A stretch of 59,183 nucleotides of DNA from a virus (Duplodnaviria > Caudoviricetes). The first letter of the stretch is position 1; each line of letters starts with the position of its first letter. Made by a program: the position numbers and the translations under genes. Positions 3,205 to 54,718 of the stretch are shown here, piece after piece. The stretch covers positions 1 through 59,183 of the IMG/VR virus record IMGVR_UViG_3300049489_000417; one strand, written 5' to 3'. The notes below the pieces were generated by a model, which had not been told where the DNA came from, ran no database searches, and saw nothing but the letters and a program-made list of their open reading frames with translations.

Positions 3205-6200
3205 TTACGCAGCTTTCAACTTAGCGATGCTGTCTGTGGCCAAGTTCAAAGCCGGGCTGAGAGCGAATGCCGGATCGTTAACCGCGCCGAGGCCCCACTC
3301 AGACGTACCGAGCAAACTAGCCTTTTTGATGGAGTACACCATCGCTTCGCCGGTAGTCATCTTGTCGATGTAGTCAGACCCAGTCAGCGTGTGCTTGAGC
3401 ACACCAGAGCCGTAGGCGAACGGTGTAGATGCAAGCAAGATCATCAATGGCGTAGCGTTGCTGTGCTCCATGTACTCGGTAAACGCGCGGCTGAGGATGA
3501 CGTCTTGGAACGCCATAGTGAACCGCTTCATATGGGCGAACAACATCCAGTGCGGGTCGTGCATCCACGGCGCGGTGTTCACTTCGTTGGGTCGTACAGC
3601 AGCGGAGTCCGCAAACGCAGCGACCGCGTTCATTATCTTCTTGCTGCCCCAGTCAATCTTGCCATCGACATCATCCTTGGTTAGCCCTAGTTCCTCGAGA
3701 TAGCGGGTGGATTCGTCTCCAGTTTTCCATGTGGCGTCTTTTGCATGACGCTCAACGAAGCCGCGCCCGGCTACAGAAGCGGCCACACGCATTTGGCGAG
3801 ACCAGCCGTCTAGCATGTTCCACTTGAAGAATACTTTCGAAGCTTTGCGCGCAAGGCCGGATGCGTTCTCACCGATGAACAGGTCGCCCATCGATTCCAT
3901 GTTGACCGTATGCTCGAGAATACCAGCATGTACGGCGTACAGCTCGTCTTCACTCAGCTGAACCGGCCCGCCGAGGCTACCTATAGTCTTTGGGAATGCG
4001 CTCATACCGGCGATGTACGCAGGGATGATGTCACCGAAGTTACCAGAGCGGGCAGCGATAGCGAACGGCTCAACCAGCGACGCGAACAGAGCAAGCGGCA
4101 GAGTCGCGAGGTTGGTAGCAACGGAGATGTTAGCCATCAGCTTGCGGACCTTCGGATCCATGTCACTACCAATACGCCCGTGCTGAGCGTCGAAGAATGT
4201 CTTAGCTGCGGCACCGACACGCGCGTTACCCTGCTTCTTAATTGCGGCGACCAAAGCTTCGGCCTTCTCAACCACCTCTTTCGGCATAACACGATGCTGA
4301 ACGGCGCGGTCTATGAGCGCGCCGAAATACAGGTCAGGATCGTACTGACGCCACTTCTGCTCCAAAGCTGGCTTTGTGAACATCTTGCTGGACTTCAAAC
4401 CAGGCATAACCGCCTTGTTGTCGACGATCTGATCCAGCGTGAGGTTCGCGTCCCGTCTACCGAACTCTAGGACGTCCGCGTTCCACGCAGCCGAATCCTT
4501 GTTGATAGCGGCGTAGTCGTACACAGGTGGGAGATCGTCCCAATCGCCGTGAAAATCCTTGATAGTGGTCATGACTTTACGCAGCTCTTTAGTTGCGTCG
4601 TCGTTGGCGGGCTGCCCGTCAAGGAGTCCTTTTAGCGCCGCGGTAACCGCATCGGTGCCGAACTTCTCTTTGTACAGGTCGTAGTCCGCACGCAAGCGGC
4701 GGTTCTCACGGATGCGCACATACGTAAGGCCGGTTGTCTTGTCCGCGTACATCTTAACGAGCTGGCGCAGCTCGGGGACGTTGTACTTGTCCGCTAGCGC
4801 AAGCGCGCTGACTTCGGCGCTTCGGAACACCTGACGAAGAGCTTCCGCAACTGGGGCCAAAGCTTTGGTGGCTCGCTCCACGATGCTGTCGAGCTGGCGA
4901 TAACCGAACTGCTTATCGACGGAGTCCATAGACCAGCCGGTCTTAGCCATGTCGCCTGAGATAAACGACTTGGCAAAGTTCTCAAACCGCATGTTCTCGG
5001 AAGTAAGTCGAAACGCCCACCGCAGGAACTTAAGCACCTTGTTCACAACGCCAGCGCTGTTATCACCGAGTGTAATCTTGCCTTGCGCAGCCAGTTCAAT
5101 AGCGTAAGCGATGCGCTCATCTACGTCGCGGCGCATAGCCGCGGATATCTTCTCGGCGTTGGGATGCCCCTCGAAGTGCTTGGCGATTTGCGACTGCAGC
5201 CAGACAGTAGACGACGCGCGGTCAAGTGTGCCGATAATGCGTTTGGCAGTGGCGTTGCCTGCGTCAGCGCGGTTACGGATCCCCGTGACCATGCGGTGCG
5301 CGGCCTCGTGCGTGAGCACGCCGTCGAGCGACGCAGCAGCGGTGGAGAACTGGATCACCTGGGTGTCTGTAACGATTTCGCCAGCTTTAGTAGGGTCACT
5401 GGTTATCTCAACACCGCGGTTCCACTCACCAAGCAGCTTATCAACGAAGGTGCTAGCGTACTTCAGCGCGTCGTCGGTAGTCTTGATCTCGTTCACCTCG
5501 GCTTCAGTGGCCTCACCGGTGTTCAGGCTCTGTTTACGCTTAGCGGTAACTACGCTTCGATTTTTCTGGGCCAGCTGAGCTAGCGACGGCTTACCTTCGC
5601 CGATCTGACCAGCTCGGTGCACGCCAACACGCGGGTTGTGCTGCTCGGGGTCGCCGACAATGCGTTTTAGCTCAGCCTTGAGCGCCGCTGCTACGGTAGT
5701 CTTGTCCGACCCCGCCTTGATCTTTTCCGCAGCGCGCAACCTTGCCGCTGTAACTTCAGCGTGTACGGGGGTAGCCTGGAGGGCGTCTATTTGTGCCTCT
5801 ATCTCCCTGACTCGTTCGCCGTTAGCGTTAACCAACCGCTTCTTGAGTCCGGCTATAGCTGACTCACGCAGCTCCGGTGTCATAAGCATCGCGTCGCTCT
5901 GCTTAACTTCCGAAGTACCAATAGGCGCTGCCGGGGCCTTCTTAGGGTCGTGCGTAATGCCCTGATTCTGTCGGATAGCAGCCTGGCGTTTAGCGTCAGC
6001 AACTTCGGAGTCGAGAAGCTTCTGAACACCAGAGTCCTTAGGAGTCGGTGCAACTTCAGCTTTCGCCATCGCAGACAGAGCAGCGTACGCATCACGTTGT
6101 GCCTGTTCGTACAACTCAGAAGTACCCGTCTCGCGCGTGAGTGGCGCTACGTCCTTGAGGGGGACCGGCTTGGTTTCTAGGGCCCCCGGCGACCGATCTC

Positions 6201-9200
6201 TAGCATACGTCTTTTTGCCAACCAGCTTGGCCATCATCTCTGCAGACTTCTCAGCCGCGTACGCGTCGCGCACGGCCAGGAGCTGCTGCCCGTACGGTAG
6301 CATAAGGATGGAGCCGTGCAGGAACGATACATCGTTAGCCAGGTCATGGATGATGCCGCGCATTTCCTGGTTAAGTTTCTCCGCCCCCAGCTGCACGAGC
6401 GCACGTACGGCTATACGCTGTTCAGGCTCAAGCTTGGCGATGTCCTGCATGACTTGAGGACGCTGGTCCTTGAACACAGTAACAAGCGACTTGGGTAAGG
6501 CAGCGCCAACTTTTTCAGCCTTGGCCACCATAGCCGCCATGGCCTGCCGCACGAGTTTGAGGTCACCGACTGTGTTACGTAGCGGATCCATGAGCATACG
6601 GCGCAGCTCAAACGGACGATCCGCCAGATCGTAAGCACCGTGGCTTATGTCTGTGGTGTCGGGGTCACCGAACGCGCTCAAGAACTCAAGCCCATCCGCA
6701 GACACCTTAGCGTTACGCGGGCGAGACCCCGTGCGGGCGACTGTCTTGGGTCTACTGTTGCGAGCGGTCTCGTTCTCCTCGAACCATGCGGCCGTGTCAA
6801 AGATGTTGTTGACGTTGTAGCCGTATTCTTTGGCAGAGATGTCGCCTTCAGGCGTGGCGGGCTCACTGTCGAGCCCGCGGTAGTACTCTGCCATGTACTC
6901 ATACAGCATCGCGTGCGCCAACAAGTCGCTTTCTTCGAGGCCAGAAGGATCAGCAAGCATCTCAGCAGACAGCTCGTCGATTGCGTTCTTGGCGTCGTCG
7001 TCGAAATTACTAGTGCCGACAACGTACTTGTTCTTGAGCCCAGCGAGCTTCTTATCAGCCTCTTTCTCGGCGTCGACCCCGCGCTTGGCGATACGCGAGA
7101 ACTTATCCTCGGGATTCGCCGCAGCGGCAGCTGGATCAGCGAGAGTCTTGAGAGGTTTAATAACCTTGTCTAGAGCACGTATTTCTTCGCTGATGCGCTG
7201 CGAGCGCTCGTAGTCCGGCTTATCCCCAGCCTCAGCCGCATCCCTCTGCTTAACAAGCTCATCTCGTTTTGCCTGCGCTGCGTCGAGTTCCTTACGCGGG
7301 CTCTTCACTGGCTTGCGGCGCTCGAGCGCACGGCGGAACTGCGCGGCCATGCTAGAGGCGTACGCTTCCATACCAGTGTTGAAATCGCGGTTGAGTCGAT
7401 TGCCGGACTGGATCACCTTGGAAAGCTCAACGATGCTGTCTTCAACACCTTTGGCATCGCCGCCGAGAGCTATACGCAACGCGCGTGTGGTCCAGCCGTG
7501 CATGTCCCCCATCTCACCGACGTTTTCACGGTAGCCGCTGATAACCTCGTCAACCGGCGGGCGCTTATCCTTGGCGACCATCTGGTAACCGCGGTACACG
7601 GCTTGGGCAATCGTTACTTTGTTTGCGTTACCGCCAAAGACACCGCGTACGGCGTTAGATACCTGCTGCACAAAGTGCGCTGGGTTCTCCCACGTCAACT
7701 CGCTGATGATGTCGAGCGCCTCAGGCGTGCGCTTCACCTCGTCGACCAGGTCATTAAGACGATACCCGTTACTGTTAAGGAACAGGAACTTGGACGAAGC
7801 TCCGCTACCAGCTACGTCGAACAGGCTGCGAACAGTACCTAGTGCTCCGCCATTTATCTCGACAAGGTCGGCTACAGCGATGTTCCGATTGGTAAGGTCA
7901 TCGCCGTCTACTTCTGGAAGATGGTCTTTGCCAATACCAAGCAGCTCTGTGAGGATAGCCACCTTCTGCGAGTGCGAAGCGGTAGCTATATCCTTCCCGT
8001 GCATAAGGCGGCTTACTATCGCAGGTATGAATTGGCCGAGCGACGGGTAGCGCTCCTGCATAACGAGCAGATCTGCTTCGTTCATGCCGGTCACGACTTC
8101 GCCTTTAGCTCCTTGGTTGCCGTAGACGGGTACGCGGGTCCACTTGGCAGCTTCAGCAAGGTCACCAGAATCGTTGCCATTGAGTGCCTTCGTAATGACC
8201 GAATTAGCTACAACCACACGGACAAACGACGGGTGCTTGCGGAGGAACTTGATTACGTCCTTACCTTGGTCCCAGTCGGCGAACCCAGCGTCGTCTTCCA
8301 GCGCGGCCAGCAAGGACCAGTCACCTACGAACGAGCTGAACTTGGCCGCGTCGAACCGAGGGGTCTTCATGGCTTCGTTAATTGACCGTACGGCTTCCGC
8401 GGGCAAACCGCTAGTAGCTGCGCTGATAGCCTGCTCACCAGCTTTCTGCGCGATAGTAAGCAGCTTGGTGAACATGGACTTGCGGCGGTCGTACGCTTTG
8501 GTACTCGGCGGAATCACACGGTTCACGAGCTGGTATCCAGACACAGTAGCCAGCGAAGCAAGGTCGTTATATCGTGCCTGCGCGGCCTTACTACCGGCTT
8601 TGCCGACCGTAGCGGAAGTGGTAGTAACCGCGCGAGCGATCTGCGGCAGCTTAGCACCGATGAGCGCAGACGGCACGGTGTTACGCAGATCGAAGTCGAC
8701 GCCACCATCACTGACAATATCGGCAGCTTCTGAGGAAGTATTTCCAGCCTCGGTATCTACGCGCTCGTCGTCGTCCAGGTCGTAGCCAAGATGTTGCCCG
8801 GCGGCGTTCTCGCTGACCACCTCACCTAGCGGAGTACTCTTCTTGGAGCGGTCCTCTGTAGTGCGTTTGGCATGGTGGACGCGAAGCGCGTCCAGTACGC
8901 GGTTCTGGATCTCCGGATCGAGCTTGGAGATGAGCTGGCGAACACGAGCCTCGCTTTGAGGGTCGAGCACGCTGCGTTGATTTGGCATACGCACGTATGC
9001 CGATTCTTGGTCTGCGGCTGCGGCAGTAGCGGTTGGATCGGCGTATGTGTTATACAGATTGTCGACGTAGTCGTTAATTGCCATCTGCCGGGAATTAGCA
9101 GAGTTCTCTACCTGCGCAACAAGCGACGCGCTCATCCACTTGGGCATGGACTTGTTGAACGCTTGATGCGTGGCTACTTCGATAGCCGTCTGTAGTTGCT

Positions 9201-11397
9201 CGCGCTGTTTGTCATTAAACGCGTCGCCGTATGGTACGTAGTCGTCGTCCCCTTCGGTCCACGGGAACGAATCAACGGTATACGCTTGCGTATTCGGCGG
9301 TCGGTTCTTATTCGCCTTGCGAACGGCTTCCGCTCTGCGGATAGTTCCGTACTTAGCAGGCGTCTTGGCCGCGACACGGCGCAGCTGCTGCTCCAACTCA
9401 GGTAGCGACGACAGTGCGCTGGTCACGATACCAGTGAGTTGCGGCGCTGCCAACCCGAGGTCTGCAAGCTCGTTGCGCTTAGCGTCTCCCTCAGGTCCGC
9501 GGAACTCAAAGACCTGGTTGATACTGTTCGCGAGCTCTGTCTGGAAGTTTGGCAGCGACTCATGAAGGTCTGGATTACTCCAAGACTCTTCTTCGACCAG
9601 CCGCTGGGCCGTGACCGGAGCCTGGCCGTACTCAATATCGTCCCGCTCGCGCGGAACTAGCGGGAGAGTCTGACCAATAGCAGGGTCATTATCAACATCG
9701 TCTTTACCACCAGTTCGCAAATCGCGCCGTACAGCGAGGTCCGCGTCAATAGCCTCGCGGTCCGTCATACCCTCGTCTGTATACCGCGTAGTGGTCGGCA
9801 GCACAGTGGTGTTGAGAGACTGTTTCGGCGTGCTCTTAGCCTTCTCAGCCACCAGGATTTGAATAGCTTCGCGCAACTTACCGGCTGCGTCGCCTTTGAC
9901 GGAGCGAGTGAACACATCCATCTGCTTACCGGCGTGGGCAAGCATCTTGGTGAGATCGTCACCAGCTGCAAGCTTCTCCCGGAACGCCGCGAGCTCCCCC
10001 GCGTAGTGCGTGCGCAGCTTCTCGTCCTTGGCGTGTGTAGCCATAGTGTCGAGGATGAACTCGAGCCCAGCGAGGCGGACCTCAGGGTCGATCTGCTCGT
10101 CACCGATGAGTCCGATAACCTTCTTCGCACGTTTGCCGCTGGTATCGAGGATGTCGTACGCGAAGTTGGTCAGGAAAGGTTTGATGGCTTCCGTGTCGTA
10201 CTTAGCCGCGGCGCCAGCCGCCCTCGCAGTAGCGCCTGCACGTTCGGCGAAGTCAATAGCAGCAGCACTAGCTGCGTCCATCGATGGATCTTCTCTGAAC
10301 GCCGCAAACCGCTCCTTCATAGCCCCGAAGGTGTCAATAGCCGATGCCCGCAGAAGATCGTACGTAGTAGACGAGCGAAGCTTCTCGTCCAGAGTCTTGG
10401 CGCCCTGCTTGGCGAAGTCGAGCGTGCTATTCGACGCGTCAATTACGCTCTCGGCAGCACCGCGTGCAGCGCCGCCCGCACCGGCGATACCAACTCCACC
10501 TGCAGCCTCGGCAGCTGCGGAGTCAACGAGCTCTTTTACGTCGAACCGGCTGGGGTCGATTTCTCCCGTCTCGGCGTACTGAACGGCACCCTGCTCAAGA
10601 GCGTTCTGGGCACCGCCAGTGAGGCCTTCTACACCGATGGCTGCACCACCCGCTTGCGCACCACGCGCGACGACGTTCGTAACCGGATTTGCAGACACGC
10701 CGAGCGTGGTACGCCCAACCTGAGTGAATGGCTTAGCAAGCCACTTAGCGCCTGCGGCAAGCGGAACGTAGTCAAGAGCAGTCTGGGCCAGACCAGCCGC
10801 CGCCGCTGTGCCGAGGTTATCAGTAGCATCGACGCCTGCTTCGCGCATGGCGGCGAGGTTGCCACCAGTCTGCGGCAAGAACGACGCGGCTGCAGCCCCG
10901 GGCATGGCTCTACCAGCAAGAGCTTTGGTCGCGAGCCCGCCACCGGCCATCTGCGCAATCGACGCCGCGCCTGAACCAGAGTTGAACGCGAGCCAGTCAG
11001 TCAGCTTACCCTGCGCAGCAGCTTCCGTGAAGCTGGACACAGACGTATCTACGTTAAACAGTGAGGCTTTATGTGCCTGTTGCTTTTGGAACGTACGAAG
11101 CCCCTGCACGATGGGGTTTTCTTTGCTAGTCAGCCGCTCCGCGGTGGTAGCCAACACATCCGCACCAGCGCCAATAGCACCATAGTTAGCGCTCTCCCAC
11201 CCCTTACCAGGCAGTGTGCTGGCCGCTGCTTCCTGCTTGAGTACAGCGTCCTCGTCAATAAGTGACGGGTAAGCTACAGGCTCTTCTGCTGGAGCTATGT
11301 AAGGTGTGGCGGTGTCTGCTCTTTCCGCCCCCATCTGCTGGGTAAGAAGCTTGTTGTACTCGGCCCCGGCACTGAGGTAGTCGCGGAGAGAAGCCAT
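3205..11397 (-). CDS. giant internal virion/ejection (polyvalent) protein with zincin-like HExxH domain
   Basis: 2730 aa, Ala/Gly-rich N-terminus, mostly helical, HEAAH at 5296-5310, no Cys seen, last gene of virion operon. Confidence 0.8.
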   Translation of the reverse strand: MASLRDYLSAGAEYNKLLTQQMGAERADTATPYIAPAEEPVAYPSLIDEDAVLKQEAAASTLPGKGWESANYGAIGAGADVLATTAERLTSKENPIVQGLRTFQKQQAHKASLFNVDTSVSSFTEAAAQGKLTDWLAFNSGSGAASIAQMAGGGLATKALAGRAMPGAAAASFLPQTGGNLAAMREAGVDATDNLGTAAAAGLAQTALDYVPLAAGAKWLAKPFTQVGRTTLGVSANPVTNVVARGAQAGGAAIGVEGLTGGAQNALEQGAVQYAETGEIDPSRFDVKELVDSAAAEAAGGVGIAGAGGAARGAAESVIDASNSTLDFAKQGAKTLDEKLRSSTTYDLLRASAIDTFGAMKERFAAFREDPSMDAASAAAIDFAERAGATARAAGAAAKYDTEAIKPFLTNFAYDILDTSGKRAKKVIGLIGDEQIDPEVRLAGLEFILDTMATHAKDEKLRTHYAGELAAFREKLAAGDDLTKMLAHAGKQMDVFTRSVKGDAAGKLREAIQILVAEKAKSTPKQSLNTTVLPTTTRYTDEGMTDREAIDADLAVRRDLRTGGKDDVDNDPAIGQTLPLVPRERDDIEYGQAPVTAQRLVEEESWSNPDLHESLPNFQTELANSINQVFEFRGPEGDAKRNELADLGLAAPQLTGIVTSALSSLPELEQQLRRVAAKTPAKYGTIRRAEAVRKANKNRPPNTQAYTVDSFPWTEGDDDYVPYGDAFNDKQREQLQTAIEVATHQAFNKSMPKWMSASLVAQVENSANSRQMAINDYVDNLYNTYADPTATAAAADQESAYVRMPNQRSVLDPQSEARVRQLISKLDPEIQNRVLDALRVHHAKRTTEDRSKKSTPLGEVVSENAAGQHLGYDLDDDERVDTEAGNTSSEAADIVSDGGVDFDLRNTVPSALIGAKLPQIARAVTTTSATVGKAGSKAAQARYNDLASLATVSGYQLVNRVIPPSTKAYDRRKSMFTKLLTIAQKAGEQAISAATSGLPAEAVRSINEAMKTPRFDAAKFSSFVGDWSLLAALEDDAGFADWDQGKDVIKFLRKHPSFVRVVVANSVITKALNGNDSGDLAEAAKWTRVPVYGNQGAKGEVVTGMNEADLLVMQERYPSLGQFIPAIVSRLMHGKDIATASHSQKVAILTELLGIGKDHLPEVDGDDLTNRNIAVADLVEINGGALGTVRSLFDVAGSGASSKFLFLNSNGYRLNDLVDEVKRTPEALDIISELTWENPAHFVQQVSNAVRGVFGGNANKVTIAQAVYRGYQMVAKDKRPPVDEVISGYRENVGEMGDMHGWTTRALRIALGGDAKGVEDSIVELSKVIQSGNRLNRDFNTGMEAYASSMAAQFRRALERRKPVKSPRKELDAAQAKRDELVKQRDAAEAGDKPDYERSQRISEEIRALDKVIKPLKTLADPAAAAANPEDKFSRIAKRGVDAEKEADKKLAGLKNKYVVGTSNFDDDAKNAIDELSAEMLADPSGLEESDLLAHAMLYEYMAEYYRGLDSEPATPEGDISAKEYGYNVNNIFDTAAWFEENETARNSRPKTVARTGSRPRNAKVSADGLEFLSAFGDPDTTDISHGAYDLADRPFELRRMLMDPLRNTVGDLKLVRQAMAAMVAKAEKVGAALPKSLVTVFKDQRPQVMQDIAKLEPEQRIAVRALVQLGAEKLNQEMRGIIHDLANDVSFLHGSILMLPYGQQLLAVRDAYAAEKSAEMMAKLVGKKTYARDRSPGALETKPVPLKDVAPLTRETGTSELYEQAQRDAYAALSAMAKAEVAPTPKDSGVQKLLDSEVADAKRQAAIRQNQGITHDPKKAPAAPIGTSEVKQSDAMLMTPELRESAIAGLKKRLVNANGERVREIEAQIDALQATPVHAEVTAARLRAAEKIKAGSDKTTVAAALKAELKRIVGDPEQHNPRVGVHRAGQIGEGKPSLAQLAQKNRSVVTAKRKQSLNTGEATEAEVNEIKTTDDALKYASTFVDKLLGEWNRGVEITSDPTKAGEIVTDTQVIQFSTAAASLDGVLTHEAAHRMVTGIRNRADAGNATAKRIIGTLDRASSTVWLQSQIAKHFEGHPNAEKISAAMRRDVDERIAYAIELAAQGKITLGDNSAGVVNKVLKFLRWAFRLTSENMRFENFAKSFISGDMAKTGWSMDSVDKQFGYRQLDSIVERATKALAPVAEALRQVFRSAEVSALALADKYNVPELRQLVKMYADKTTGLTYVRIRENRRLRADYDLYKEKFGTDAVTAALKGLLDGQPANDDATKELRKVMTTIKDFHGDWDDLPPVYDYAAINKDSAAWNADVLEFGRRDANLTLDQIVDNKAVMPGLKSSKMFTKPALEQKWRQYDPDLYFGALIDRAVQHRVMPKEVVEKAEALVAAIKKQGNARVGAAAKTFFDAQHGRIGSDMDPKVRKLMANISVATNLATLPLALFASLVEPFAIAARSGNFGDIIPAYIAGMSAFPKTIGSLGGPVQLSEDELYAVHAGILEHTVNMESMGDLFIGENASGLARKASKVFFKWNMLDGWSRQMRVAASVAGRGFVERHAKDATWKTGDESTRYLEELGLTKDDVDGKIDWGSKKIMNAVAAFADSAAVRPNEVNTAPWMHDPHWMLFAHMKRFTMAFQDVILSRAFTEYMEHSNATPLMILLASTPFAYGSGVLKHTLTGSDYIDKMTTGEAMVYSIKKASLLGTSEWGLGAVNDPAFALSPALNLATDSIAKLKAA

Positions 11398-40478: not shown

Positions 40479-41065
40479 TTACCGAGGTCTTCAATCACAT
40501 GTGCACGAAGTTCGTCACTATTACTGTTGTTTTTCAGTGTTTCGCGTACTTCTAGCACCTCGCCTTCGATCTCTTTGGCGTTATCGGCGGCGATTTTCAG
40601 CAATTCTTCGTCACTTAGGGTCTCAAACTGGCTCATTAGCCGCTTGTGAGTGACGTCCATCTGGATTTTCTTCACTTCAGGCGCGTAATACCCACACATA
40701 CGCCCGACTTCGCGCCACCCTTGGATCATAACCTCTGGGTCTGCTTGTATTTTGGCCATCTCGATGGCTTCCATCATGCCGTCGAGGACGATTTCACGGT
40801 TCAGTTTCAAGTGTTTCTCCGCGTGAACGAAGCGTTCTGTAATTGCCTGCTTCACAACCGGCGCTGAAAACAGCCCCCTGGCTCCCGCCGGGCACTTATA
40901 CCCCGCGTACTCTAGCGCAGCGGTTTGCGTCATCCCCAAGTCTACAACGCCTTTGACCGCAAGCTTCTGCTTTTCGGTCAGCTGCGCTTCTGCCTGCATC
41001 AAGGCTGAGTGGGGGCGGATGTGTTTGCGTCCTTTTCCGGACGCGAATCTCTGTTTGGAAGCCAT
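40475..41065 (-). CDS. terS: terminase small subunit
   Basis: LTEKQ...QTAALEYAGY HTH, GRMCGYYAPE, LSDEEL; overlaps terL start. Confidence 0.85.
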   Translation of the reverse strand: MASKQRFASGKGRKHIRPHSALMQAEAQLTEKQKLAVKGVVDLGMTQTAALEYAGYKCPAGARGLFSAPVVKQAITERFVHAEKHLKLNREIVLDGMMEAIEMAKIQADPEVMIQGWREVGRMCGYYAPEVKKIQMDVTHKRLMSQFETLSDEELLKIAADNAKEIEGEVLEVRETLKNNSNSDELRAHVIEDLGK

Positions 41066-41090
41066 ATGAGCACTATACCAAAAAAATTCT

Positions 41091-41182
41091 AAAATTTTTA
41101 GAAAAGTTGGTGAATGAGGGTGTGAAGGCTACACCAAAAAATCCCGAAAATTTTTAGAAAAGTTGGTGAATGAGGGTGTGAA
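41091..41182. repeat. 36-bp direct repeat x2 (41091-41126, 41147-41182) at the late/early divergence
   Basis: AAAATTTTTAGAAAAGTTGGTGAATGAGGGTGTGAA twice, 56-bp period. Confidence 0.95.
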
Positions 41183-41274
41183 CTCCTCTATCCCCTTGTC
41201 TCTTTGACGAGGGGATACTTCGGATGCGACTTGGCATAGGGCCAAAAAGCATTCTTTTTTATTAGGAGAGCACC

Positions 41275-41502
41275 ATGACCACAGCAAGCAATATCCTCAA
41301 GCATCTCAACTCCAGCAACGCCGCACAGACCACCGAGCCCAAGGCTAGCTGGTCCATGAGGTTTCATGCCGCTTGTATCCAGAGCGCCAAGGACAGTGCC
41401 GCTTTTAAGCGTGCTGTTGTCGCCTCGGCGAAGTACGGTTCTAGCGATGAAGGCGTTGCAGACTACCTTAGCCGCCTTACGGCTGCTGGTCTTCTGAAGT
41501 AA
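41275..41502 (+). CDS. early hypothetical protein
   Basis: AGGAGA RBS, 75 aa. Confidence 0.75.
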   Translation: MTTASNILKHLNSSNAAQTTEPKASWSMRFHAACIQSAKDSAAFKRAVVASAKYGSSDEGVADYLSRLTAAGLLK

Positions 41503-41568
41503 CAATACTTATACGGGAGCTTAGGCTCCCGTATTCTCGTTGCACACTTCCGTGCTAAGGAGAGAATC

Positions 41569-42954: not shown

Positions 42955-43341
42955 ATGAATATTGGATCGGCGCTGTTTCAACTCGCGGCTACTATTAGCA
43001 GCGAAACTGAGGATCATGAAGCTGCTGGTGATCTGTTTCGTCTTGCTGATAAGTACGCTAAATCAAATATTGATGCGTGGATGGTCCATCAAGGTACACA
43101 TAATCATCTTATGAGTGAGTACCAGTATGTTTCGGGTCAACTCGGCGTGTACCAAGCTGAATCGAGCCGTCGCGCGTTTGAGATGCGCAACATGAATGGG
43201 TGGATTCGTAAGCTTTCGTACGCTTATGTTGCCGCGCAAGAGCGTATTGAGCATCTCCTGGTTAGTTACGGCTACACGAATTACGAAGCTCCGAAATCGG
43301 AGACTTTGGAGTTCGCGCGGCAGATAAATACTCAGGTGTAA
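42955..43341 (+). CDS. early hypothetical protein
   Basis: TAAGGAGAG RBS; 128 aa. Confidence 0.8.
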   Translation: MNIGSALFQLAATISSETEDHEAAGDLFRLADKYAKSNIDAWMVHQGTHNHLMSEYQYVSGQLGVYQAESSRRAFEMRNMNGWIRKLSYAYVAAQERIEHLLVSYGYTNYEAPKSETLEFARQINTQV

Positions 43342-43517
43342 GGTTGCGGGGTTAGGGGGCTTTGGCCCCCTTTCCCGTGCTGCACAATTGGGTTAAACCA
43401 TTAGTGCTCCGCCATACCCTCACGCACCATTTCGCGGCTGCGCCGCGGAGTGGTGTGGGGGTTGGGTTTCCCCTACTTGCGCAATGTTGCGCACAACACC
43501 TGTAAAGGAGATACATC

Positions 43518-46863: not shown

Positions 46864-46940
46864 GGGCTCGTAGCTCAGACGGTTAGAGCAAAGGACTCAT
46901 AATCCTTCGGTCCTTGGTTCGAATCCAAGCGGGCCCACCA
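46864..46940 (+). tRNA. tRNA-Ile2(CAT) (lysidine type; elongator Met not excluded)
   Basis: Full cloverleaf, GACT-CAT-AATC anticodon arm, TTCGAAT T-loop, ACCA end. Confidence 0.9.
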
Positions 46941-48767: not shown

Positions 48768-51038
48768 ATGAACATCTACTTCCTGGAAGCAAAAGTACCC
48801 CTCACAAAGACTTTCAGACCAGATGGCACCTCAGACCAATACCCGCTTATCTCGAAGTTCACATCCTCGGAAGTCAGTGTCGCCTCTATCGAGGACCTCT
48901 ACGACGCCCTTGTAGCCCACAGCCAGAAGGGCCACTGTCTGCTCAAAGGCGCCCTCTCGCGCCCCCTTGTAAACGAGTCCCGCGCAGGGGCCACAGACCC
49001 TGACGCCCCCACGCAGTGGATCTGCATCGACATTGATGGCCTAACCGCCTACAAGGACCTGGACGCATGGATATCGACCACCCCGTTAGCAGACGTCTCT
49101 CATATAGTGAACTGGTCAGCGTCTTCTGGCCTGAAACCCGGCATTCGAGCCCACGTCCTCGTCTTGCTAGCTGCATTCGCCTCCCCAGCCACCATCAAGG
49201 CCTGGCTCAAATCTCTAAACCTTGGCGACGCCAATATCTCTGGGCAATTAGGCCTTACACGGGCCAAGGCCGTCATCAAGTGGGTCATAGACCCGACAGT
49301 GGCACAGAATGACAAGCTTATCTACACAACCGCTCCCGTTCTCATACCACCGCTGGCCGACCCTCACCCGGGGCTTTCCAGGTACGTACTCAATCTACGT
49401 ACCCAGCCATCGCTTACCCTGCCACCGATTGATGTTGAGAGCGTTCGCGCCGCAGAAACTAAGAAAACCAACGAACTGAGGGCCCTGGAAGGGCTCCCAG
49501 CCAAGAGGACTCACTCCTATGTACGTGCTGGCCAAGTTGAATACCTCTCAAAGCCTGGCGTCACGGCGGAAGTCACGGGCGTTAAAAAAGATAGGGGTTA
49601 CACCTATCTTAACCTTAACGGCGGTGATTCGTGGGGATACTATCATCCGGACAACGTCGTCGAGTTCCTTTATAACTTTAAGGGCGAACCGACCTATAAG
49701 CTTAAGGAAATTTGCCCCGACTACTACTCCACCGCGGTTAGTGAGCTTCAATCGACCCCGGACAAAACGGGCCGTGTCTTTTTGGCTTTTAGAGAGTTTC
49801 GAACCGGTCAATATTGGAATGGAGTCTTTGTCGCAGATAATAATTCGCTTAGTCTCGCGGCGGCCCGCAGTACTCAGCAGCTTGACCACTTCATGGCCCA
49901 GTATCAGGCCCCATGGGACGGCGTACCTAAAGACTGGTCTATCGAGTATGCCCCATCCAAGGCTAAGCGCGTGGACTTTGACCAACGAATAGTCAACACA
50001 TACGAAGCCCCTGGTCACGCCTACGATCCCAACACTCAATACACGCTTCCGCCCATAACCAAAAAGGTCATAGAACATGTTTGTGGCGACGTCCAGATTG
50101 CACAAATTTTCATTAATTGGCTCGCGTACATCGTCCAGACTAAACAGCGCCCTTCGACAGCATGGCTTTTCCACGGCACCCAAGGTACTGGTAAGGGTCT
50201 TCTTGCCAACTTCGTATTGCCTGCCCTCCTTGGCAGGGCAAATACGGCTCTACGACGCCAATCTGAACTGGAGGAGCGGTTCAACAGCTATCTCGAAGGA
50301 AAAATGGTCGTTGTGGTGGACGAAGTGCAGATGGGTGCACTATCCGGCGCTAAGCGAATCAACTCAGATATCAAAAATTACATCACAGAAGACACAATCA
50401 CCATTCGTCGTATGCGTGTGGACGGGTACTCGATTCCTAACACTTGTTCGCTAATCTTCTGTTCGAACATGCCAGATCCGGTCATCCTCGATGAGACTGA
50501 CCGGCGCATGCACATGGGCGCCTACCAGCCTAACAAGCTGCAGATCACACAAGCTGAAGTAGTCCAGCTCGAGAAAGAAGCTGAGCAACTTAACGGCTAT
50601 TTGCTGCAGTTCGCAGTAGATCCCGACAAAGCTCGATACCCACAATGGACTGAAGCCAAGAAAAATGTACTCGATCTGTCTCTATCCGGCCCTGAGGTTC
50701 TCGCTCGGGCCATTAAAGCAGGGGATTTCGCATACTTTGTTGATCAGCTACCCGATACAAGGCTTCAAACAACAATCAACCGCGAAGTCCAACTTAAAAA
50801 TTACGAGGCAACCCTGCGTGGCATTGCCAGGCGCGGAAATCATCTTACACGTGACGAGGCCCATACACTCTTCGTATGGACGCAGGGTACTGGCGAGGCC
50901 AGTACAACGAAGTTTGCAACATATCTTAAGCACCTTCGACTCGAGCTCAAGAAAATCCGTATTGACGGCCAGGTTGTTACGGCGATTCCAGTCAACTGGA
51001 ACGTTCTAGAAGCCGACAAAGCGAGGCTGGGCATATGA
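48768..51038 (+). CDS. primase-helicase (prim-pol N-terminus, SF3/DUF5906 helicase)
   Basis: CIDID and RAHV primase motifs; HGTQGTGKG Walker A, VVVDE Walker B, FCSN, DRR. Confidence 0.9.
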   Translation: MNIYFLEAKVPLTKTFRPDGTSDQYPLISKFTSSEVSVASIEDLYDALVAHSQKGHCLLKGALSRPLVNESRAGATDPDAPTQWICIDIDGLTAYKDLDAWISTTPLADVSHIVNWSASSGLKPGIRAHVLVLLAAFASPATIKAWLKSLNLGDANISGQLGLTRAKAVIKWVIDPTVAQNDKLIYTTAPVLIPPLADPHPGLSRYVLNLRTQPSLTLPPIDVESVRAAETKKTNELRALEGLPAKRTHSYVRAGQVEYLSKPGVTAEVTGVKKDRGYTYLNLNGGDSWGYYHPDNVVEFLYNFKGEPTYKLKEICPDYYSTAVSELQSTPDKTGRVFLAFREFRTGQYWNGVFVADNNSLSLAAARSTQQLDHFMAQYQAPWDGVPKDWSIEYAPSKAKRVDFDQRIVNTYEAPGHAYDPNTQYTLPPITKKVIEHVCGDVQIAQIFINWLAYIVQTKQRPSTAWLFHGTQGTGKGLLANFVLPALLGRANTALRRQSELEERFNSYLEGKMVVVVDEVQMGALSGAKRINSDIKNYITEDTITIRRMRVDGYSIPNTCSLIFCSNMPDPVILDETDRRMHMGAYQPNKLQITQAEVVQLEKEAEQLNGYLLQFAVDPDKARYPQWTEAKKNVLDLSLSGPEVLARAIKAGDFAYFVDQLPDTRLQTTINREVQLKNYEATLRGIARRGNHLTRDEAHTLFVWTQGTGEASTTKFATYLKHLRLELKKIRIDGQVVTAIPVNWNVLEADKARLGI

Positions 51039-51307: not shown

Positions 51308-51375
51308 CAAATGGCAAAGATCACTCTCACCCGCGCGCTGGTGGAACTCAAGACCCTGGACGCAAGAATCAGTAA
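51184..51375 (+). CDS. small zinc-ribbon protein
   Basis: GGAG RBS; CTIC...CLQC. Confidence 0.55.
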   Translation: MAVIFNPNHKFKCTICKQRKPRKGGTQPGRPFICLQCKEEIANGKDHSHPRAGGTQDPGRKNQ

Positions 51376-51949
51376 CACGATCAGCCTTACCTGCTTCGTC
51401 GGTATCGTTAAAGGTACCGGCGACAAACAGGTAGTGGTCGGCAGTGCAGAGACCCCCGCGGCCCTCGAACAACGCATCCGCTCTGGCTTTCAAAGCCTGG
51501 ACGACCTCATCATCCGTCGCAACAAGATCAAAGCCGAACTAGTCCAGGCCAACGCAACCACGCCCGTGACCATCGCCGGCTGCACGTACACCATCGCCGG
51601 CGCTATCGAATACAAGCGTGCCATGGAGGTCGAGCGACAGATCGTTATGCACATGCGGGCACAGCTGGCCAAAGCCGAGCAGATTGTCCAACAGGGCAAC
51701 ACCAAGATGGAGACCGACATCGAGACTGCAGCCGTCGCCGCAGCTGGCGGGGACAAGAAGGCCGTAAGCACCGAGGTCTTCGAGATGGTCGCCGCGCCGC
51801 GTCGCGCCATGCACAAGCATGCGCTGCTCGACCCGGCCAATCTTCGCGAGAGCATCGAGCAGCGCGTGAAGCTCATCGAGGCCTTCGCGGCTGAGTGCGA
51901 CGTCGCACTGTCGGAAGTCAATGCACGCACCGAGATCGAGGTGAACTAA
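51311..51949 (+). CDS. long helical-hairpin/coiled-coil protein (resembles DIP1984/DUF6847-type family)
   Basis: TLTRALVELKTLDARI...ANATT.VTIAG..YTIAGAIEYK...LLDP...DVALSEVNARTEI. Confidence 0.8.
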   Translation: MAKITLTRALVELKTLDARISNTISLTCFVGIVKGTGDKQVVVGSAETPAALEQRIRSGFQSLDDLIIRRNKIKAELVQANATTPVTIAGCTYTIAGAIEYKRAMEVERQIVMHMRAQLAKAEQIVQQGNTKMETDIETAAVAAAGGDKKAVSTEVFEMVAAPRRAMHKHALLDPANLRESIEQRVKLIEAFAAECDVALSEVNARTEIEVN

Positions 51950-51950
51950 T

Positions 51951-52268
51951 ATGGCCCAGGTCACTCGCTATATCCACCTCCGCTTCAAGGACAGCGACGG
52001 GCGCCCTACTTCCCGAGGTGGGCTAACAGTCGCCTATCTCATCGATACCGAACTGGACTCTGTGATCCGGTGGTCAGCTGCCCGCTGTTCTTCAAACGAC
52101 AACTTCTGCAAGAGTACCGGGCGGACGATCTCACAAGGCCGGTTGCACAGCCCACGACTTAGTCGTACGATCTCGCCTTTGGCTGAGAAACTGTTTGTGA
52201 AACTGATGCACGAGACTCCGGTCAATCAGCTCTTCATCAACAGTCGGCCGATAGTGTTTATTCGCTAA
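51951..52268 (+). CDS. conserved phage protein
   Basis: GGLTVAY...ARCSSNDNFCKSTGR.I..GR motif. Confidence 0.8.
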   Translation: MAQVTRYIHLRFKDSDGRPTSRGGLTVAYLIDTELDSVIRWSAARCSSNDNFCKSTGRTISQGRLHSPRLSRTISPLAEKLFVKLMHETPVNQLFINSRPIVFIR

Positions 52269-52339
52269 TGTAGCTCAGTTGGTAGAGCAACCGCCTTGTA
52301 AGCGGTAGGCCAGTGGTTCGACCCCACTCATTAGCACCA
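52264..52339 (+). tRNA. tRNA-Thr(TGT)
   Basis: Full cloverleaf, ACCGC-CTTGTAA-GCGGT, ACCA end. Confidence 0.95.
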
Positions 52340-52347
52340 GTTTCAGA

Positions 52348-52423
52348 CGCGGGGTAGCGCAGTTGGAAGCGCGCCTGGCTCATACCCAGGAGGCCGTAGG
52401 TTCGAGTCCTACCCCCGCATCCA
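52348..52423 (+). tRNA. initiator-type tRNA-fMet(CAT)
   Basis: CGCGGGG acceptor with C1xA72 mismatch, CAT anticodon, CCA end. Confidence 0.92.
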
Positions 52424-52430
52424 GTTTTAC

Positions 52431-52508
52431 GACCGCCAATGTTCCAAGGCTCGGCGAGTTGGACTCCAAATCCGACTGTGTGGGGTTCGATTCCCTGGGT
52501 GGTCGCCA
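52431..52508 (+). tRNA. tRNA-Trp(CCA), atypical D arm
   Basis: GACCGCC/GGTGGTC acceptor, TTGGA-CTCCAAA-TCCGA, GCCA end. Confidence 0.85.
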
Positions 52509-52515
52509 CGTTTTT

Positions 52516-52877
52516 GAGTCTCATCAGCAGCGAACAAGTGAGAACTCTCAGCCCGTTCCTGGCCCGGGTTAAGCCAGGAAATTTGACTAGCTCAATGGTA
52601 GAGCGACACCCTGCTAAGGTGTATGTATCAGGTTCAATTCCTGAGTCTATGACGATGACTGACAGTCCGCCCGGGAGAGGGGATAACCCGATGAACCCGG
52701 AGACTTAAAAGGTCAACAGTCAGCGCTCAACGGTCAACCATGAACAGTCAACTTGTAACGGTAACACACTGAGGTCTAAACACCCATCGCTCTTAAAATC
52801 CTGGGTTAACGTTTTTGTGGGTTAGCTCGACAAGACCCCCACTTGTACGCCAGGCTGCTGTTTGATGAGACTCACCA
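52516..52877 (+). ncRNA. candidate large structured RNA with tRNA-like domain and heptamer array
   Basis: Perfect terminal inverted repeat 52515-52526/52863-52874 ending ACCA; further end pairings; tRNA-like D/AC/T arms 52585-52647; 7-nt repeats 52711-52765. Confidence 0.75.
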
Positions 52878-52890
52878 CACACTACACCCT

Positions 52891-53091
52891 ATGCCAGATA
52901 CCCGATTCCATGCAGAGTTCTACATCGACAAACAAGGATACCTCACAGGTCGTGTCCGCTTTCCTAAAGACGACAGCGCAACACTGGAAGCTCTCAACGC
53001 CATCATCGATGAGTACGCCAAACGACTCGAAACAAGCCACCACGACGTGATGAACCTCATACGGAGGCAGCACAATGAGTCAGAAAGTTGA
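52891..53091 (+). CDS. hypothetical protein
   Basis: Start MPDTRF right after the RNA element. Confidence 0.6.
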   Translation: MPDTRFHAEFYIDKQGYLTGRVRFPKDDSATLEALNAIIDEYAKRLETSHHDVMNLIRRQHNESES

Positions 53092-54066: not shown

Positions 54067-54245
54067 AAAAGACCGCATGGTTCCCGCCGCACATCAAGCC
54101 GGTGCACGAAGGATGGTACGAGTGCAAATGTTGTAACTCGTCGTTCTGGTGGAATGGTGAAGTTTGGCTCTACGATATGGATTCTCCATTTAAAGTGCTA
54201 TTCCAAGAAATATACTGGCGCGGACTGACGGAGGAAGCGAAATGA
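54063..54245 (+). CDS. small Trp-rich phage protein
   Basis: WFPPHIKPVHEGWYE...WRGL motif. Confidence 0.75.
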   Translation: MKKTAWFPPHIKPVHEGWYECKCCNSSFWWNGEVWLYDMDSPFKVLFQEIYWRGLTEEAK

Positions 54246-54718
54246 AAAGGGCGAAACTAACAAAAGCAAATTTGCAGAACAAAGTAAGTATCTCAGAGAA
54301 GGGATGTTGGCTATGGAGTGGAGCTAGAAAAACAGCAGGAACTAGAGGGTTTTCATACGGATGGGTGACACTCGACGGAAAGCAACAGAATGCTCACAGA
54401 GCAGTATGGGCTCTATTTTTTGGAGACATACCGAGAGGTTTTTATGTGTGCCATAAATGTGACGTTCCTTTGTGTGTAAATCCAGACCACTTATTTCTAG
54501 GAACACCATCTGACAACATGCAAGATATGTGGAATAAAAACCGCCATAAAAGACCAGATGAAAGCAACCTGCACCGCAAACTAAGTAATGAACAGGTATC
54601 ACAGATAGTTGATCTTCTTTCAACCGGAGAAACACAAAAGCTAATTGCTAATAAATACGGCGTGTCGCAAGCGTGTATATCAAATATCAACACAAAAAGG
54701 AGTTGGGGGCGTGCGTAA
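54242..54718 (+). CDS. HNH homing-type endonuclease with C-terminal HTH
   Basis: GCWLWSG, AHR, VCHKCD.PLCVNPDHLFLGT..DNMQD; AT-richer than flanks. Confidence 0.92.
   Translation: MKRAKLTKANLQNKVSISEKGCWLWSGARKTAGTRGFSYGWVTLDGKQQNAHRAVWALFFGDIPRGFYVCHKCDVPLCVNPDHLFLGTPSDNMQDMWNKNRHKRPDESNLHRKLSNEQVSQIVDLLSTGETQKLIANKYGVSQACISNINTKRSWGRA

Follow-up and report, generated by a model that had tools for sequence, protein, structure and literature searches.

A conserved phage pair of a helical-protein gene and a 3′ structured RNA with 7-base repeats, probably working as one protein–RNA particle

Introduction

Species 1 and 2 of phage T4 are stable, non-tRNA RNAs from the tRNA region of the phage. 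The bacterial Y RNA YrlA, whose ends form a long stem and which carries a tRNA-like module in some cases, is accompanied by a dedicated protein, Rsr/Ro60, and is found in some phages. Regular single-stranded RNA repeats are read by oligomers such as TRAP, HutP and the nucleocapsid proteins, with a fixed number of nucleotides per subunit. The large phage RNAs ROOL and GOLLD often lie beside tRNA islands, with tRNAs sometimes inside the RNA, and have no known protein partner according to the accessible part of 10.1101/2024.12.08.627333. These abundant and elaborate RNAs, with neither function nor partner known, constitute a standing puzzle.

The locus described here lies in a 59,183-nt stretch of tailed-phage DNA (IMG/VR record IMGVR_UViG_3300049489_000417), hereafter the window. 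An original prediction, made from the letters alone, had joined a 212-aa all-helical protein, a conserved 105-aa protein, three tRNAs and a large repeat-bearing RNA into one unit in which the protein assembles on the repeats. All of these parts exist. The phage gene for the helical protein and the structured RNA 3′ of it, with its 7-base repeats, are a conserved pair, which probably works as one protein–RNA particle, and which appears to be undescribed so far. The features of the locus, with related loci given by number (L003 and so on), are as follows.

51311–51949, + strand: gene (ORF) of the 212-aa helical protein, phrog_1491, a remote relative of DUF6847/PDB 3KDQ
51951–52268, + strand: 105-aa ORF between the protein gene and the RNA
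52264–52339, + strand: tRNA-Thr (UGU); ARAGORN, Rfam tRNA 74.6 bits
52348–52423, + strand: tRNA-Met (CAU); ARAGORN, Rfam tRNA 65.5 bits
52431–52508, + strand: tRNA-Trp (CCA); ARAGORN, below the Rfam gathering score
52515–52874, + strand: whole structured RNA, 360 nt, closed by P1; homologous to the post-gene stretch of L003 and to 33 aligned relatives
52515–52531, + strand: P1, 5′ strand of the closing helix; inverted repeat I1, covariation
52532–52540, + strand: P2, 5′ strand, GAACAAGUG, a conserved GAAAAC-type junction; inverted repeat I6, partner 52840–52848
52551–52580, + strand: candidate 5′ hairpin or H-type pseudoknot with a UUAA loop (GCCCG/CGGGU; UUCCUGGC/GCCAGGAA); same offset in the window, L003, L004, L005 and L043
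52581–52653, + strand: embedded tRNA-like element with a GCU anticodon loop, in the variable region of the RNA; ARAGORN Ser(gct), Rfam tRNA
52704–52766, + strand: nine 7-nt units, family consensus G-N-U-Y-A-A-A, predicted to be single-stranded; Tandem Repeats Finder, unit parse
52795–52804, + strand: conserved AAAAUCC block running into the P4 5′ strand (CCUGG); alignment columns 556–561 nearly invariant
52840–52848, + strand: P2, 3′ strand, CACUUGUAC, inside the P4 hairpin; inverted repeat, covariation
52850–52874, + strand: P4 3′ strand (CCAGG), conserved GGCU and P1 3′ strand; inverted repeats, alignment, covariation, RNAalifold

Linkage of the protein gene and the RNA

Relatives of the protein were found in IMG/VR with a seven-row protein alignment (A2), a 28-row alignment being too diverse for use; from 257 relatives, 80 loci were kept, which gave 48 non-redundant downstream regions. 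The original prediction had proposed that the flanks of the homologues be scanned for a terminal stem and 7-nt repeats, and a similar RNA was indeed found right after the gene in all 48 loci, as well as in phage T5. A profile of the 3′ block of the RNA matched 35 of the 48 regions (E ≤ 0.01), a structural detector identified five more (L011, L018, L021, L044 and L062), and eight were assigned by eye (L016, L017, L022, L023, L026, L027, L030 and L031). The rigid structural detector was positive in 28/49 regions, T5 included, versus 1/147 shuffles.

The association also holds when approached from the RNA. Searching viral contigs with the RNA motif gave 119 matches, 31 of them with P1 and P4 features; in every one of these 31 the protein gene ends 200–480 nt upstream, whereas none of the 88 chance matches has the gene upstream. 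Apart from chance matches, the exact RNA motifs of the window and of L003 picked out no contigs but those of L003, L006 and L007; a search of the phage collection for close DNA relatives of the window yielded tRNA pieces alone. The pattern in the window is more than chance because it recurs in relatives, and not on the strength of the window alone. Viral loci searched with the single window protein as query gave no match; a scan of genome contigs from A2, made with one narrow peptide pattern, returned no relative and says nothing on absence from bacterial genomes.

Across phage lineages the protein family is 30–50% identical and the order of gene and RNA is kept, while the position of the module within phage genomes varies. 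In 34 of the 35 loci whose RNA start was mapped, no more than about 110 nt lie between the protein gene and the RNA. The single exception is the window, where gene and RNA are split by the 105-aa ORF and three tRNAs, so that tight cis coupling is not required.

Phage T5 carries gene T5.085 followed by an unannotated RNA of ~345 nt (NC_005859, about 43146–43490, minus strand); as T5 is a classical, genetically tractable phage, binding, processing and phenotype are directly testable there. The rnaX of the T5 RefSeq entry (40848–41566), annotated as ‘stable RNA with unknown functions’, lies elsewhere. No description of the pair was found in the literature on T5 and its RNAs, GOLLD/ROOL and DUF6847, nor among the matches listed for the T5 gene names T5.085, T5.084 and T5p083. 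The accessible main text of PMC10690425 (Fremin et al. 2023) contains none of the terms ‘tail fiber’, ‘phage T5’, ‘Demerecviridae’ and ‘heptam’; its 8495 supplementary IMG/VR candidates may include parts of the RNA.

Architecture of the RNA

The RNA fills an ORF-poor stretch (52515–52874), and varies from 270 to 450 nt across relatives. The terminal stem that had been predicted for it has 12-nt, perfectly complementary arms (52515–52526 and 52863–52874), with two more nested long-range repeats inside. Folding energy gave z = −3.6 on the + strand and z = −3.5 on the − strand, values so similar that folding energy alone cannot assign the strand; P1, in which G-U pairs number 66 against 11 for A-C, points by this excess to a + strand transcript.

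Three helices, one of which makes a pseudoknot, are supported by covariation across 33 RNAs. Within them 81.4% of cells are paired, versus 36.8–41.6% when the partners are slid by 1–3 columns, two-sided changes occur in 277 cells versus 73–86 in the slid controls, and the covariation score is 0.708 versus 0.12–0.15; none of 500 shuffles matched the observed pairing and covariation values. For the inner eight pairs of P1, pairing reaches 95.8% of cells and covariation extends to every pair (8/8), figures that are inflated by the placing of the P1 5′ anchor by complementarity. P2 is paired in 66% of cells and shows two-sided changes in 8/10 pairs; its second pair is a conserved mismatch, and the helix crosses P4 to form the pseudoknot. 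P4, paired in 85.9% of cells with 5/6 pairs covarying, was also predicted independently by RNAalifold, while the MAFFT alignment resolved no inner hairpin of the 3′ domain. For the candidate 5′ pseudoknot, a crude detector failed to distinguish the RNAs (28/33 positive) from shuffled sequences (120/165).

Period-7 repeats, likewise anticipated, were confirmed by Tandem Repeats Finder (52711–52738, period 7, score 35) and parse into nine units in the window. Arrays of 3–10 units are present in all 33 aligned RNAs and lie downstream, not upstream, of the gene. The commonest form of the heptamer, G-U-U-C-A-A-A, resembles the conserved T-loop sequence of tRNA.

No Rfam 15 family was found for the RNA, the matches in the window at gathering score being to tRNA alone; at E ≤ 10, 52200–53000 of the window gave nothing relevant and 13 related loci gave nothing on the element. 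Identity as a tmRNA was considered and dropped, since ARAGORN reports none. In the sole RNA library that contained any of the stretch, one exact contig of 175 nt falls inside the protein gene (51464–51638) and is weak evidence of transcription; the other matches in the library are generic tRNA fragments. None covers the structured RNA, an absence that carries no weight. Between 48000 and 54000, a promoter and terminator scan returned sites no more frequent than in shuffles.

The helical protein

The 212-aa protein matches PHROG family phrog_1491 over its full length (E 3e-57, residues 1–212 on profile positions 2–210 of 211), and homologues occur in 739 phage records. The AlphaFold2 model (pLDDT 93.3) has five helices and a small four-stranded sheet, so the description ‘all-helical’ captures the helices and misses the sheet. 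The family lacks a basic character, having a median pI of 6.6 and a net charge near 0; its conserved basic residues are R8, K14, R19, R70, K74 and K102. Neither Pfam, PHROG and NCBIfam nor structure comparison revealed a nuclease, integrase or reverse-transcriptase fold or family, and PADLOC gave no match for the module.

The best and sole clear structural match is 3kdq_A (VIA-align Z 9.7, 151/152 residues aligned, rmsd 7.8 Å), the only chain with Z ≥ 8 among 48161, in a range (Z under about 13) where helical proteins can reflect a common arrangement. 3KDQ is also the top Foldseek match (E 2.4e-3, prob 1.00), at 15–18% identity and with the window protein about 60 residues longer. It comes from Corynebacterium diphtheriae, is conserved, and is taken here to be locus DIP1984; neither 3KDQ nor DUF6847 has a known function. 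The window protein gave no match to Pfam PF20935 (DUF6847) at E ≤ 0.1 and none to any NCBIfam model, while PF20935 was matched weakly by 4/28 homologues (best E 0.0044), weak profile matches also occurred (E 0.032), and the nearest Pfam-bearing ESM cluster is DUF6847. The model thus suggests a fold shared with 3KDQ and a relationship that is remote at best, 3KDQ being the sole structural relative. The resemblance to DIP1984/DUF6847 that had been proposed in the original prediction is real in the 3kdq match and the four weakly matching homologues, and distant for the window protein, which has no Pfam match to that family.

The label ‘tail fiber protein’, under which phrog_1491 appears in databases, is doubtful. 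In the window the gene belongs to an early/replication block on the + strand, together with NinX, HNH and a primase-type gene; the virion genes, portal and terminase included, lie on the − strand at 3–41 kb. In T5-like phages the phrog_1491 gene is found among nucleotide-metabolism genes. Just upstream of the protein gene in the window is a DUF5906 primase/helicase-type gene (48768–51038), and an HNH gene lies near the module (54242–54718). If confirmed, the pair would put right a label now repeated in hundreds of phage genome records, and would provide the first functional context for the DUF6847/3KDQ fold.

Neighbouring tRNAs and the 105-aa ORF

The unit as originally drawn holds for the gene and the RNA; the tRNAs and the 105-aa ORF are not constant members. 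tRNA genes are frequent neighbours, with a tRNA within 5 kb in 31/48 non-redundant loci and within 300 nt upstream or 1000 nt downstream in 25/48, and those neighbouring tRNAs are all co-oriented (251/251). The three of the window are genuinely present, as had been noted, and their like is near only those 31 of the 48 loci.

A fourth tRNA-like element sits inside the RNA rather than beside it. It spans 73 nt and scores 50.4 bits with the Rfam tRNA model (gathering score 29), lacks a long variable arm and has a weak acceptor stem with about 4/7 standard pairs. Bacterial tRNA-Ser needs a long variable arm; the element, as its sequence reads, fits the cloverleaf model yet would fall short of a functional tRNA-Ser. 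L003 has a tRNA-Thr in its place, and most relatives have none there.

The 105-aa ORF is a real small gene outside the conserved module. It has no family in Pfam, PHROG, NCBIfam or PADLOC; tblastn found it in only four phage records, from Xanthomonas/Stenotrophomonas, and of the 35 loci whose RNA start was mapped, the window is the only one where it stands between gene and RNA.

Proposed mechanism and alternative explanations

This analysis establishes the two-way linkage, the helices and transcribed strand of the RNA, the conservation of the array and the protein fold. The best reading as a whole, which we hold with moderate confidence, is of a conserved two-part phage module whose protein of roughly 210 aa and non-coding RNA, encoded downstream on the same strand, would form a ribonucleoprotein. 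The RNA is a closed, pseudoknotted scaffold, in which P1 joins the ends, P2 joins the P1-side junction to a strand inside the 3′ hairpin, and P4 is built from the conserved AAAUCC and GGCU blocks; this scaffold would display an unpaired array of 3–10 phased heptamers (G-N-U-Y-A-A-A). Gene and RNA would derive from one early transcript, often shared with phage tRNAs, from which host RNA-processing enzymes may release the RNA. Binding of the protein, most plausibly as one protomer per heptamer or at the P1/P2/P4 junction, would yield a particle that acts on host RNA or the translation machinery early in infection; a role in translation or anti-defence is a guess. Against a ribonucleoprotein stand the non-basic family (median pI 6.6), unlike typical RNA-coating proteins, the single structural relative, 3KDQ, with no known function, and the nearest analogues, GOLLD and ROOL, reported in the accessible part of 10.1101/2024.12.08.627333 to work without a known protein partner. 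The adjacency of gene and RNA may stem from shared regulation and not from contact.

More specifically, the heptamers could serve as a single-stranded ruler that places one protein copy per heptamer in a particle of defined make-up, possibly a decoy or dock for host enzymes whose recognition sites are tRNA elbows or loops, a version to which we attach rather little probability. Its appeal is that the heptamer is T-loop-like and a tRNA is embedded in some members, so that the particle could be a decoy or docking platform; the targets would then be tRNA-cleaving defence nucleases or processing or modification enzymes, and the phage’s own tRNA supply and translation would be protected.

It is unlikely, in our estimation, that the RNA is a machine by itself, either a multimeric RNA assembly or a heptamer sponge for a host RNA-binding protein or RNase, with the protein acting in the same pathway and not binding it. 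Such an RNA would occupy the same niche as ROOL and GOLLD, which are phage-encoded, often near tRNA islands, sometimes with tRNAs embedded, and without a known partner in the accessible part of 10.1101/2024.12.08.627333, and would suit both the tRNAs within 5 kb in 31/48 loci and the non-basic protein; however, the one-to-one, same-order linkage across very distant phages exceeds what is expected of loosely related functions, and Rfam shows no similarity to ROOL or GOLLD. Alternatively, the RNA might be a structured mRNA end, a cis-acting 3′ UTR with no independent role, serving to stabilise the message or to control its translation or termination. The RNA starts no further than about 110 nt past the stop codon in 34/35 loci and is often followed by a tRNA or terminator-like sequence, as this would predict, but in the window the RNA is intact despite the intervening 105-aa ORF and three tRNAs, and a length of 270–450 nt, together with the pseudoknot, the invariant blocks and the phased array, goes far beyond the need of a stabilising hairpin, making the explanation distinctly improbable.

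Two further possibilities are considered very unlikely. Were the element to function as DNA, the heptamers would serve as origin iterons or be bound by a DNA-binding protein, with the inverted repeats as features of the DNA. The direct 7-bp repeats do look like iterons, the primase/helicase-type gene (DUF5906, 48768–51038) is just upstream in the window, and folding energy is equally good on both strands; yet the compensatory changes and the 66 to 11 preponderance of G-U over A-C in P1 are meaningful only for a + strand RNA, and T5-like phages keep the module amid nucleotide-metabolism genes, not beside replication-initiation genes. The chances are just as slim for a selfish or addiction cassette, a mobile or toxin–antitoxin-like unit (a type III-like repeat RNA against a toxic protein) lodged in tRNA islands: a repeat-bearing RNA does adjoin a small protein gene, the position in phage genomes is variable and an HNH gene is nearby (54242–54718), whereas no nuclease, integrase or reverse-transcriptase fold or family and no PADLOC match was found, the repeats, placed downstream of the gene, span 7 nt each instead of a full pseudoknot unit, and the family, 30–50% identical, keeps the same order across phage lineages.

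Comparison with known systems

Type III toxin–antitoxin systems of the ToxIN kind combine an endoribonuclease toxin with upstream repeats of roughly 36 nt; the module has 7-nt repeats downstream, no nuclease-like fold and no PADLOC family. Replication-origin iterons are double-stranded DNA sites without RNA-pairing constraint, in contrast to the module, where the flanking helices covary and G-U outnumbers A-C by 66 to 11 in P1. The proposed ribonucleoprotein would resemble TRAP and HutP in matching a repeat period with an oligomer, and bears no sequence or fold likeness to those proteins. It departs from YrlA in having a small helical protein as partner instead of a TROVE ring, in a tRNA-like part that some members lack, in its heptamer array, and in giving no Y RNA-type match in Rfam. 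Like T5 rnaX, which is annotated as such, the module RNA would be a non-tRNA stable RNA beside phage tRNA genes; unlike rnaX and the T4 RNAs, it is recognised by its conserved helices, its heptamer array and the protein gene that accompanies it. The phage K RNA lnc001, GOLLD/ROOL-like by its position near tRNA in the accessible part of PMC9241854, was considered as a module RNA and set aside, having no protein homologue upstream and no array.

The closest parallel is with ROOL and GOLLD, with which the RNA shares its encoding by phages, a length of several hundred nucleotides, a pseudoknot, the lack of a known function and a place near tRNAs (31/48 loci), with a tRNA or tRNA-like element inside the RNA of the window and of L003. 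It is distinct in being shorter (270–450 nt), in carrying a phased heptamer array, and in always following one particular protein gene. The module would thereby represent a third class of such RNAs, one that comes with a built-in clue in its dedicated protein gene and with a phased heptamer array.

Layout of the locus

The window, a 59,183-bp IMG/VR virus record, is estimated to be 77% complete, and its gene blocks were assigned from a scan of 32 of the 79 non-overlapping ORFs.

Features of the window and of the gene–RNA locus
roughly 3-41 kb, minus strand: structural genes (portal, large terminase, head-closure protein, putative 2730-aa virion protein)
from about 41.7 kb, plus strand: early/replication block (ORF scan)
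48768-51038, plus strand: DUF5906 primase-type gene
between the DUF5906 gene and the 212-aa ORF, plus strand: 90-aa ORF
51311-51949, plus strand: 212-aa ORF
51951-52268, plus strand: 105-aa ORF
52264-52508, plus strand: tRNA-Thr, tRNA-Met and tRNA-Trp
about 380 nt, 3′ of the three tRNAs, plus strand: stretch without a credible ORF
52515-52526 / 52863-52874: outermost inverted repeat, 12 nt, perfectly complementary
52581-52653: tRNA-like element inside the RNA, the fourth such element of the locus
beyond the ORF-free stretch, plus strand: small genes, including NinX and an HNH endonuclease

Long-range inverted repeats are nested in the ORF-free stretch, which also contains a period-7 repeat. 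The original prediction described this locus accurately, save that its “large RNA” encloses the fourth tRNA-like element. Elsewhere in the window, a lone further tRNA-Met gene (46864-46940) lies 4.4 kb upstream of the module, and the 2730-aa single ORF (3205-11397, minus strand), which resembles ‘virion structural protein’ PHROGs at its two ends only (C-terminal match E 1e-50), appears from these matches to be a giant virion protein.

An RNA follows the gene

In the closest relative (locus L003, 41% identity), the stretch directly 3′ of the gene aligns with window 52505-52885, sharing blocks at both ends and a heptamer array, and a tRNA-Thr occupies the place of the window’s tRNA-like element. 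Window 52606-52620 and L003 5715-5729 share an identical 15-nt sequence, an anticodon-arm-like hairpin with the loop CUGCUAA. In the window it serves as the anticodon arm of the tRNA-like element within the RNA, and in L003 it stands as a free hairpin just ahead of the embedded tRNA-Thr, which suggests that tRNA parts have been swapped in and out of the RNA’s variable region.

Downstream regions were inspected in 82 homolog loci (80 from IMG/VR, one T5-like GenBank phage, and the window), most of which carry period-7 arrays (....AA.) 90-350 nt past the stop codon, such arrays being rare upstream. The flanks, which the original prediction had proposed scanning for a terminal stem plus 7-nt repeats, reduce to 48 non-redundant regions, and the RNA was found after the gene in all 48, as well as in phage T5. 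A 3′-block profile recovers 35 of these at E <= 0.01, and five more (L011, L018, L021, L044, L062) were added by a rigid structural detector, which demands 3/3 pairs in the 3′ hairpin (P4) and an ungapped 12-bp closing helix (P1) with at least 10 pairs, with a bonus for a GA junction, and which scored >=16 in 28 of 49 regions (T5 included) versus 1 of 147 shuffles. In the remaining eight (L016, L017, L022, L023, L026, L027, L030, L031) the blocks and a bulged P1 were judged by eye. The T5 element lies 3′ of T5.085, at about 43146-43490 on the minus strand of NC_005859, where the RefSeq record has no annotation.

The reverse search used an RNA-only pattern on viral contigs (the commonest version of the AAAUCC block, with GGCUG following after 40-70 nt), which matched at least 119 stretches. 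Among the 119 listed, 31 possess both P4 (at least 2/3 pairs) and P1 (at least 11/12), and a homolog of the protein’s family, phrog_1491, lies upstream in all 31 (tblastn with 28 homologous proteins, E <= 1e-4), a test that partly overlaps the protein-side search as some of the 31 contigs occur in both. The distance from homolog end to block is 200-480 nt in each of these, and a contig end cuts the gene in five. The other 88 listed matches, without P1 and P4, have the gene in 0/88 by tblastn.

Structure and covariation of the RNA

The conserved GAAAAC-type junction and GGCU served as anchors for the RNA ends, and 33 RNAs were aligned, L012 and L033 being left out of the 35 as near-duplicates of L010 and L039. 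Across 30 pairs of P1, P2 (the junction helix) and P4, standard pairs fill 81.4% of cells, versus 36.8-41.6% in controls with the 3′ partner slid by 1-3 columns; 277 cells are changed on both sides (73-86 in the slid controls), and the covariation score is 0.708 (0.12-0.15). None of 500 shuffles attains the observed pairing, double-change or covariation values. Inner P1 is 95.8% paired with 8/8 pairs covarying, and outer P1 83.3% paired, figures that are biased because the P1 5′ anchor was picked by complementarity. P4 (85.9% paired, 5/6 pairs covarying, one occurring as AU 14, UA 13, CG 3 and GC 1) and P2 (66% paired, 8/10 covarying, with a conserved mismatch at the second pair) were not so picked, and P4 is predicted unaided by RNAalifold on the 3′ domain alone. 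As the 3′ strand of P2 lies inside the P4 hairpin, P2 and P4 together form a pseudoknot. P1 contains 66 G-U versus 11 A-C pairs, an excess that indicates a plus-strand transcript and counts against a DNA-level element.

Each of the 33 aligned RNAs carries 3-10 consecutive heptamers. Position 1 is G in 56%, position 2 is N, position 3 is U in 93%, position 4 is C in 47% or U in 34%, and positions 5, 6 and 7 are A in 87%, 85% and 67%, respectively, with positions 3, 5 and 6 partly imposed by the filter. A candidate 5′ hairpin/pseudoknot (window 52551-52580) occupies the same place in five lineages, its crude detector scoring not above shuffles. Neither the window’s element nor its counterparts in 13 relatives match any Rfam 15 family.

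The protein family

The phrog_1491 match spans the whole length of the 212-aa protein (E 3e-57). In tblastn, 739 phage records contain homologs at below 60% identity, and in 712 of these the match spans >=80% of the query; they include those of T5-like Salmonella and Escherichia phages, and of Pseudomonas, Vibrio, Klebsiella, Bacillus, Erwinia and Lactococcus phages. The database label of phrog_1491, “tail fiber protein”, seems doubtful, since the gene’s neighbours in T5-like genomes are nucleotide-metabolism rather than tail genes, and in the window it sits within the early block. Pfam, NCBIfam and PADLOC gave no family for the protein. With a median pI of 6.6 the family is close to neutral, and it conserves a few basic residues (R8, K14, R19, R70, K74 and an invariant K102).

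The AlphaFold2 model, built with 28 homologs, is confident (pLDDT 93.3, pTM 0.69), and predicts helices at 6-26, 49-83, 95-144, 154-168 and 178-206, and strands at 2-5, 85-88, 91-94 and 208-211. Among 48,161 PDB representatives, the top structural match, and the sole chain at Z >= 8, is 3kdq_A from C. diphtheriae, of unknown function (Z 9.7; 151/152 residues aligned, rmsd 7.8 Å). It was also first in Foldseek (E 2.4e-3), where the model gave nothing at E <= 1e-3, and the family profile matches it at E 0.032. DUF6847 (PF20935) is touched by 4 of the 28 homologs (best E 0.0044); it is also the family of the closest ESM Atlas cluster to bear a Pfam domain (score 0.87), in which 16% of members carry it. 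The DUF6847-type resemblance put forward in the original prediction thus holds as a remote relationship and not as membership, Pfam being empty for the protein itself, and this kinship brings no function with it.

Neighbourhood and expression

At least one tRNA lies within 5 kb in 31 of the 48 loci (40/60 in the raw set), and in 25 of the 48 a tRNA falls within the 300 nt preceding the gene or the 1000 nt that follow its stop; all 251 neighbouring tRNAs are on the module’s strand. As tRNAs are near only this share of loci, tRNA islands are a frequent home of the module and not a defining part. A tRNA that abuts the module is very often tRNA-Met, 360-550 nt after the stop in L009, L034, L037 and L040, and 45 nt before the gene in L032, L033 and L039. 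A tta-anticodon tRNA (‘tRNA-Stop’) lies ~100 nt upstream of the gene in L046 and L048-L050 (4829-4900), and a cta-anticodon tRNA (called Pyl) beside the module in L005 (9318-9393); these could be suppressor tRNAs or reflect stop-codon recoding. Rfam also places a group I intron (L040 2944-3220, 64.8 bits), a drum RNA (L010 6398-6505, 47.7 bits) and a skipping-rope RNA (L013 10004-10073, 47.0 bits) near the module. A second unexplained RNA of the same T5 region, the 719-nt rnaX, annotated ‘stable RNA with unknown functions’, adjoins tRNA-Arg (record 40848-41566, equivalent to 4849-5567 of the T5 locus L225); in the T5-like L001, Rfam gave tRNA matches only, including a weak 29.3-bit one ahead of tRNA-Arg.

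Among the 35 loci with a mapped RNA start, gene and RNA are separated by other features only in the window. Relatives of the intervening 105-aa ORF were found by tblastn in only four phage records, of Xanthomonas and Stenotrophomonas (36-43% identity over about 60-70 residues), where unrelated small genes surround them; this restriction offers a faint hint that the uncultured phage may share the host group of those phages. Evidence of expression is weak: one metatranscriptome contains a 175-nt contig that matches part of the protein gene exactly, and the remaining matches are generic tRNA fragments.

Interpretation and comparison with known systems

The gene–RNA pair recurs without exception in phages as far apart as T5 and those of Bacillus and Vibrio, keeping its order and short spacing while everything around it varies. 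The most economical explanation is that protein and RNA have a joint function, probably in the form of a ribonucleoprotein. An array that is phased, single-stranded and flanked by a rigid scaffold would suit a repeated protein unit that loads cooperatively; the protein’s neutrality disfavours a simple coating model.

That the RNA works by itself as a machine of the ROOL/GOLLD type, to which the protein is functionally linked, seems unlikely. A cis-acting 3′ UTR, against which the split arrangement of gene and RNA in the window counts, is somewhat less likely still. That the repeats represent a DNA iteron element is contradicted by the covariation and the G-U bias, and is highly improbable; a selfish or toxin-antitoxin-like cassette, for which there is no supporting domain, is given equally little credence.

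No description of the RNA was found in Rfam 15 or in the literature searched, and the unnamed candidates in the supplement of PMC10690425 may include pieces of it. On the protein side, the nearest known thing is the 3KDQ/DUF6847 fold. The nearest known RNAs are the large ornate phage RNAs ROOL and GOLLD, which occupy the same niche but differ as RNAs, and are reported without a known protein partner (10.1101/2024.12.08.627333).
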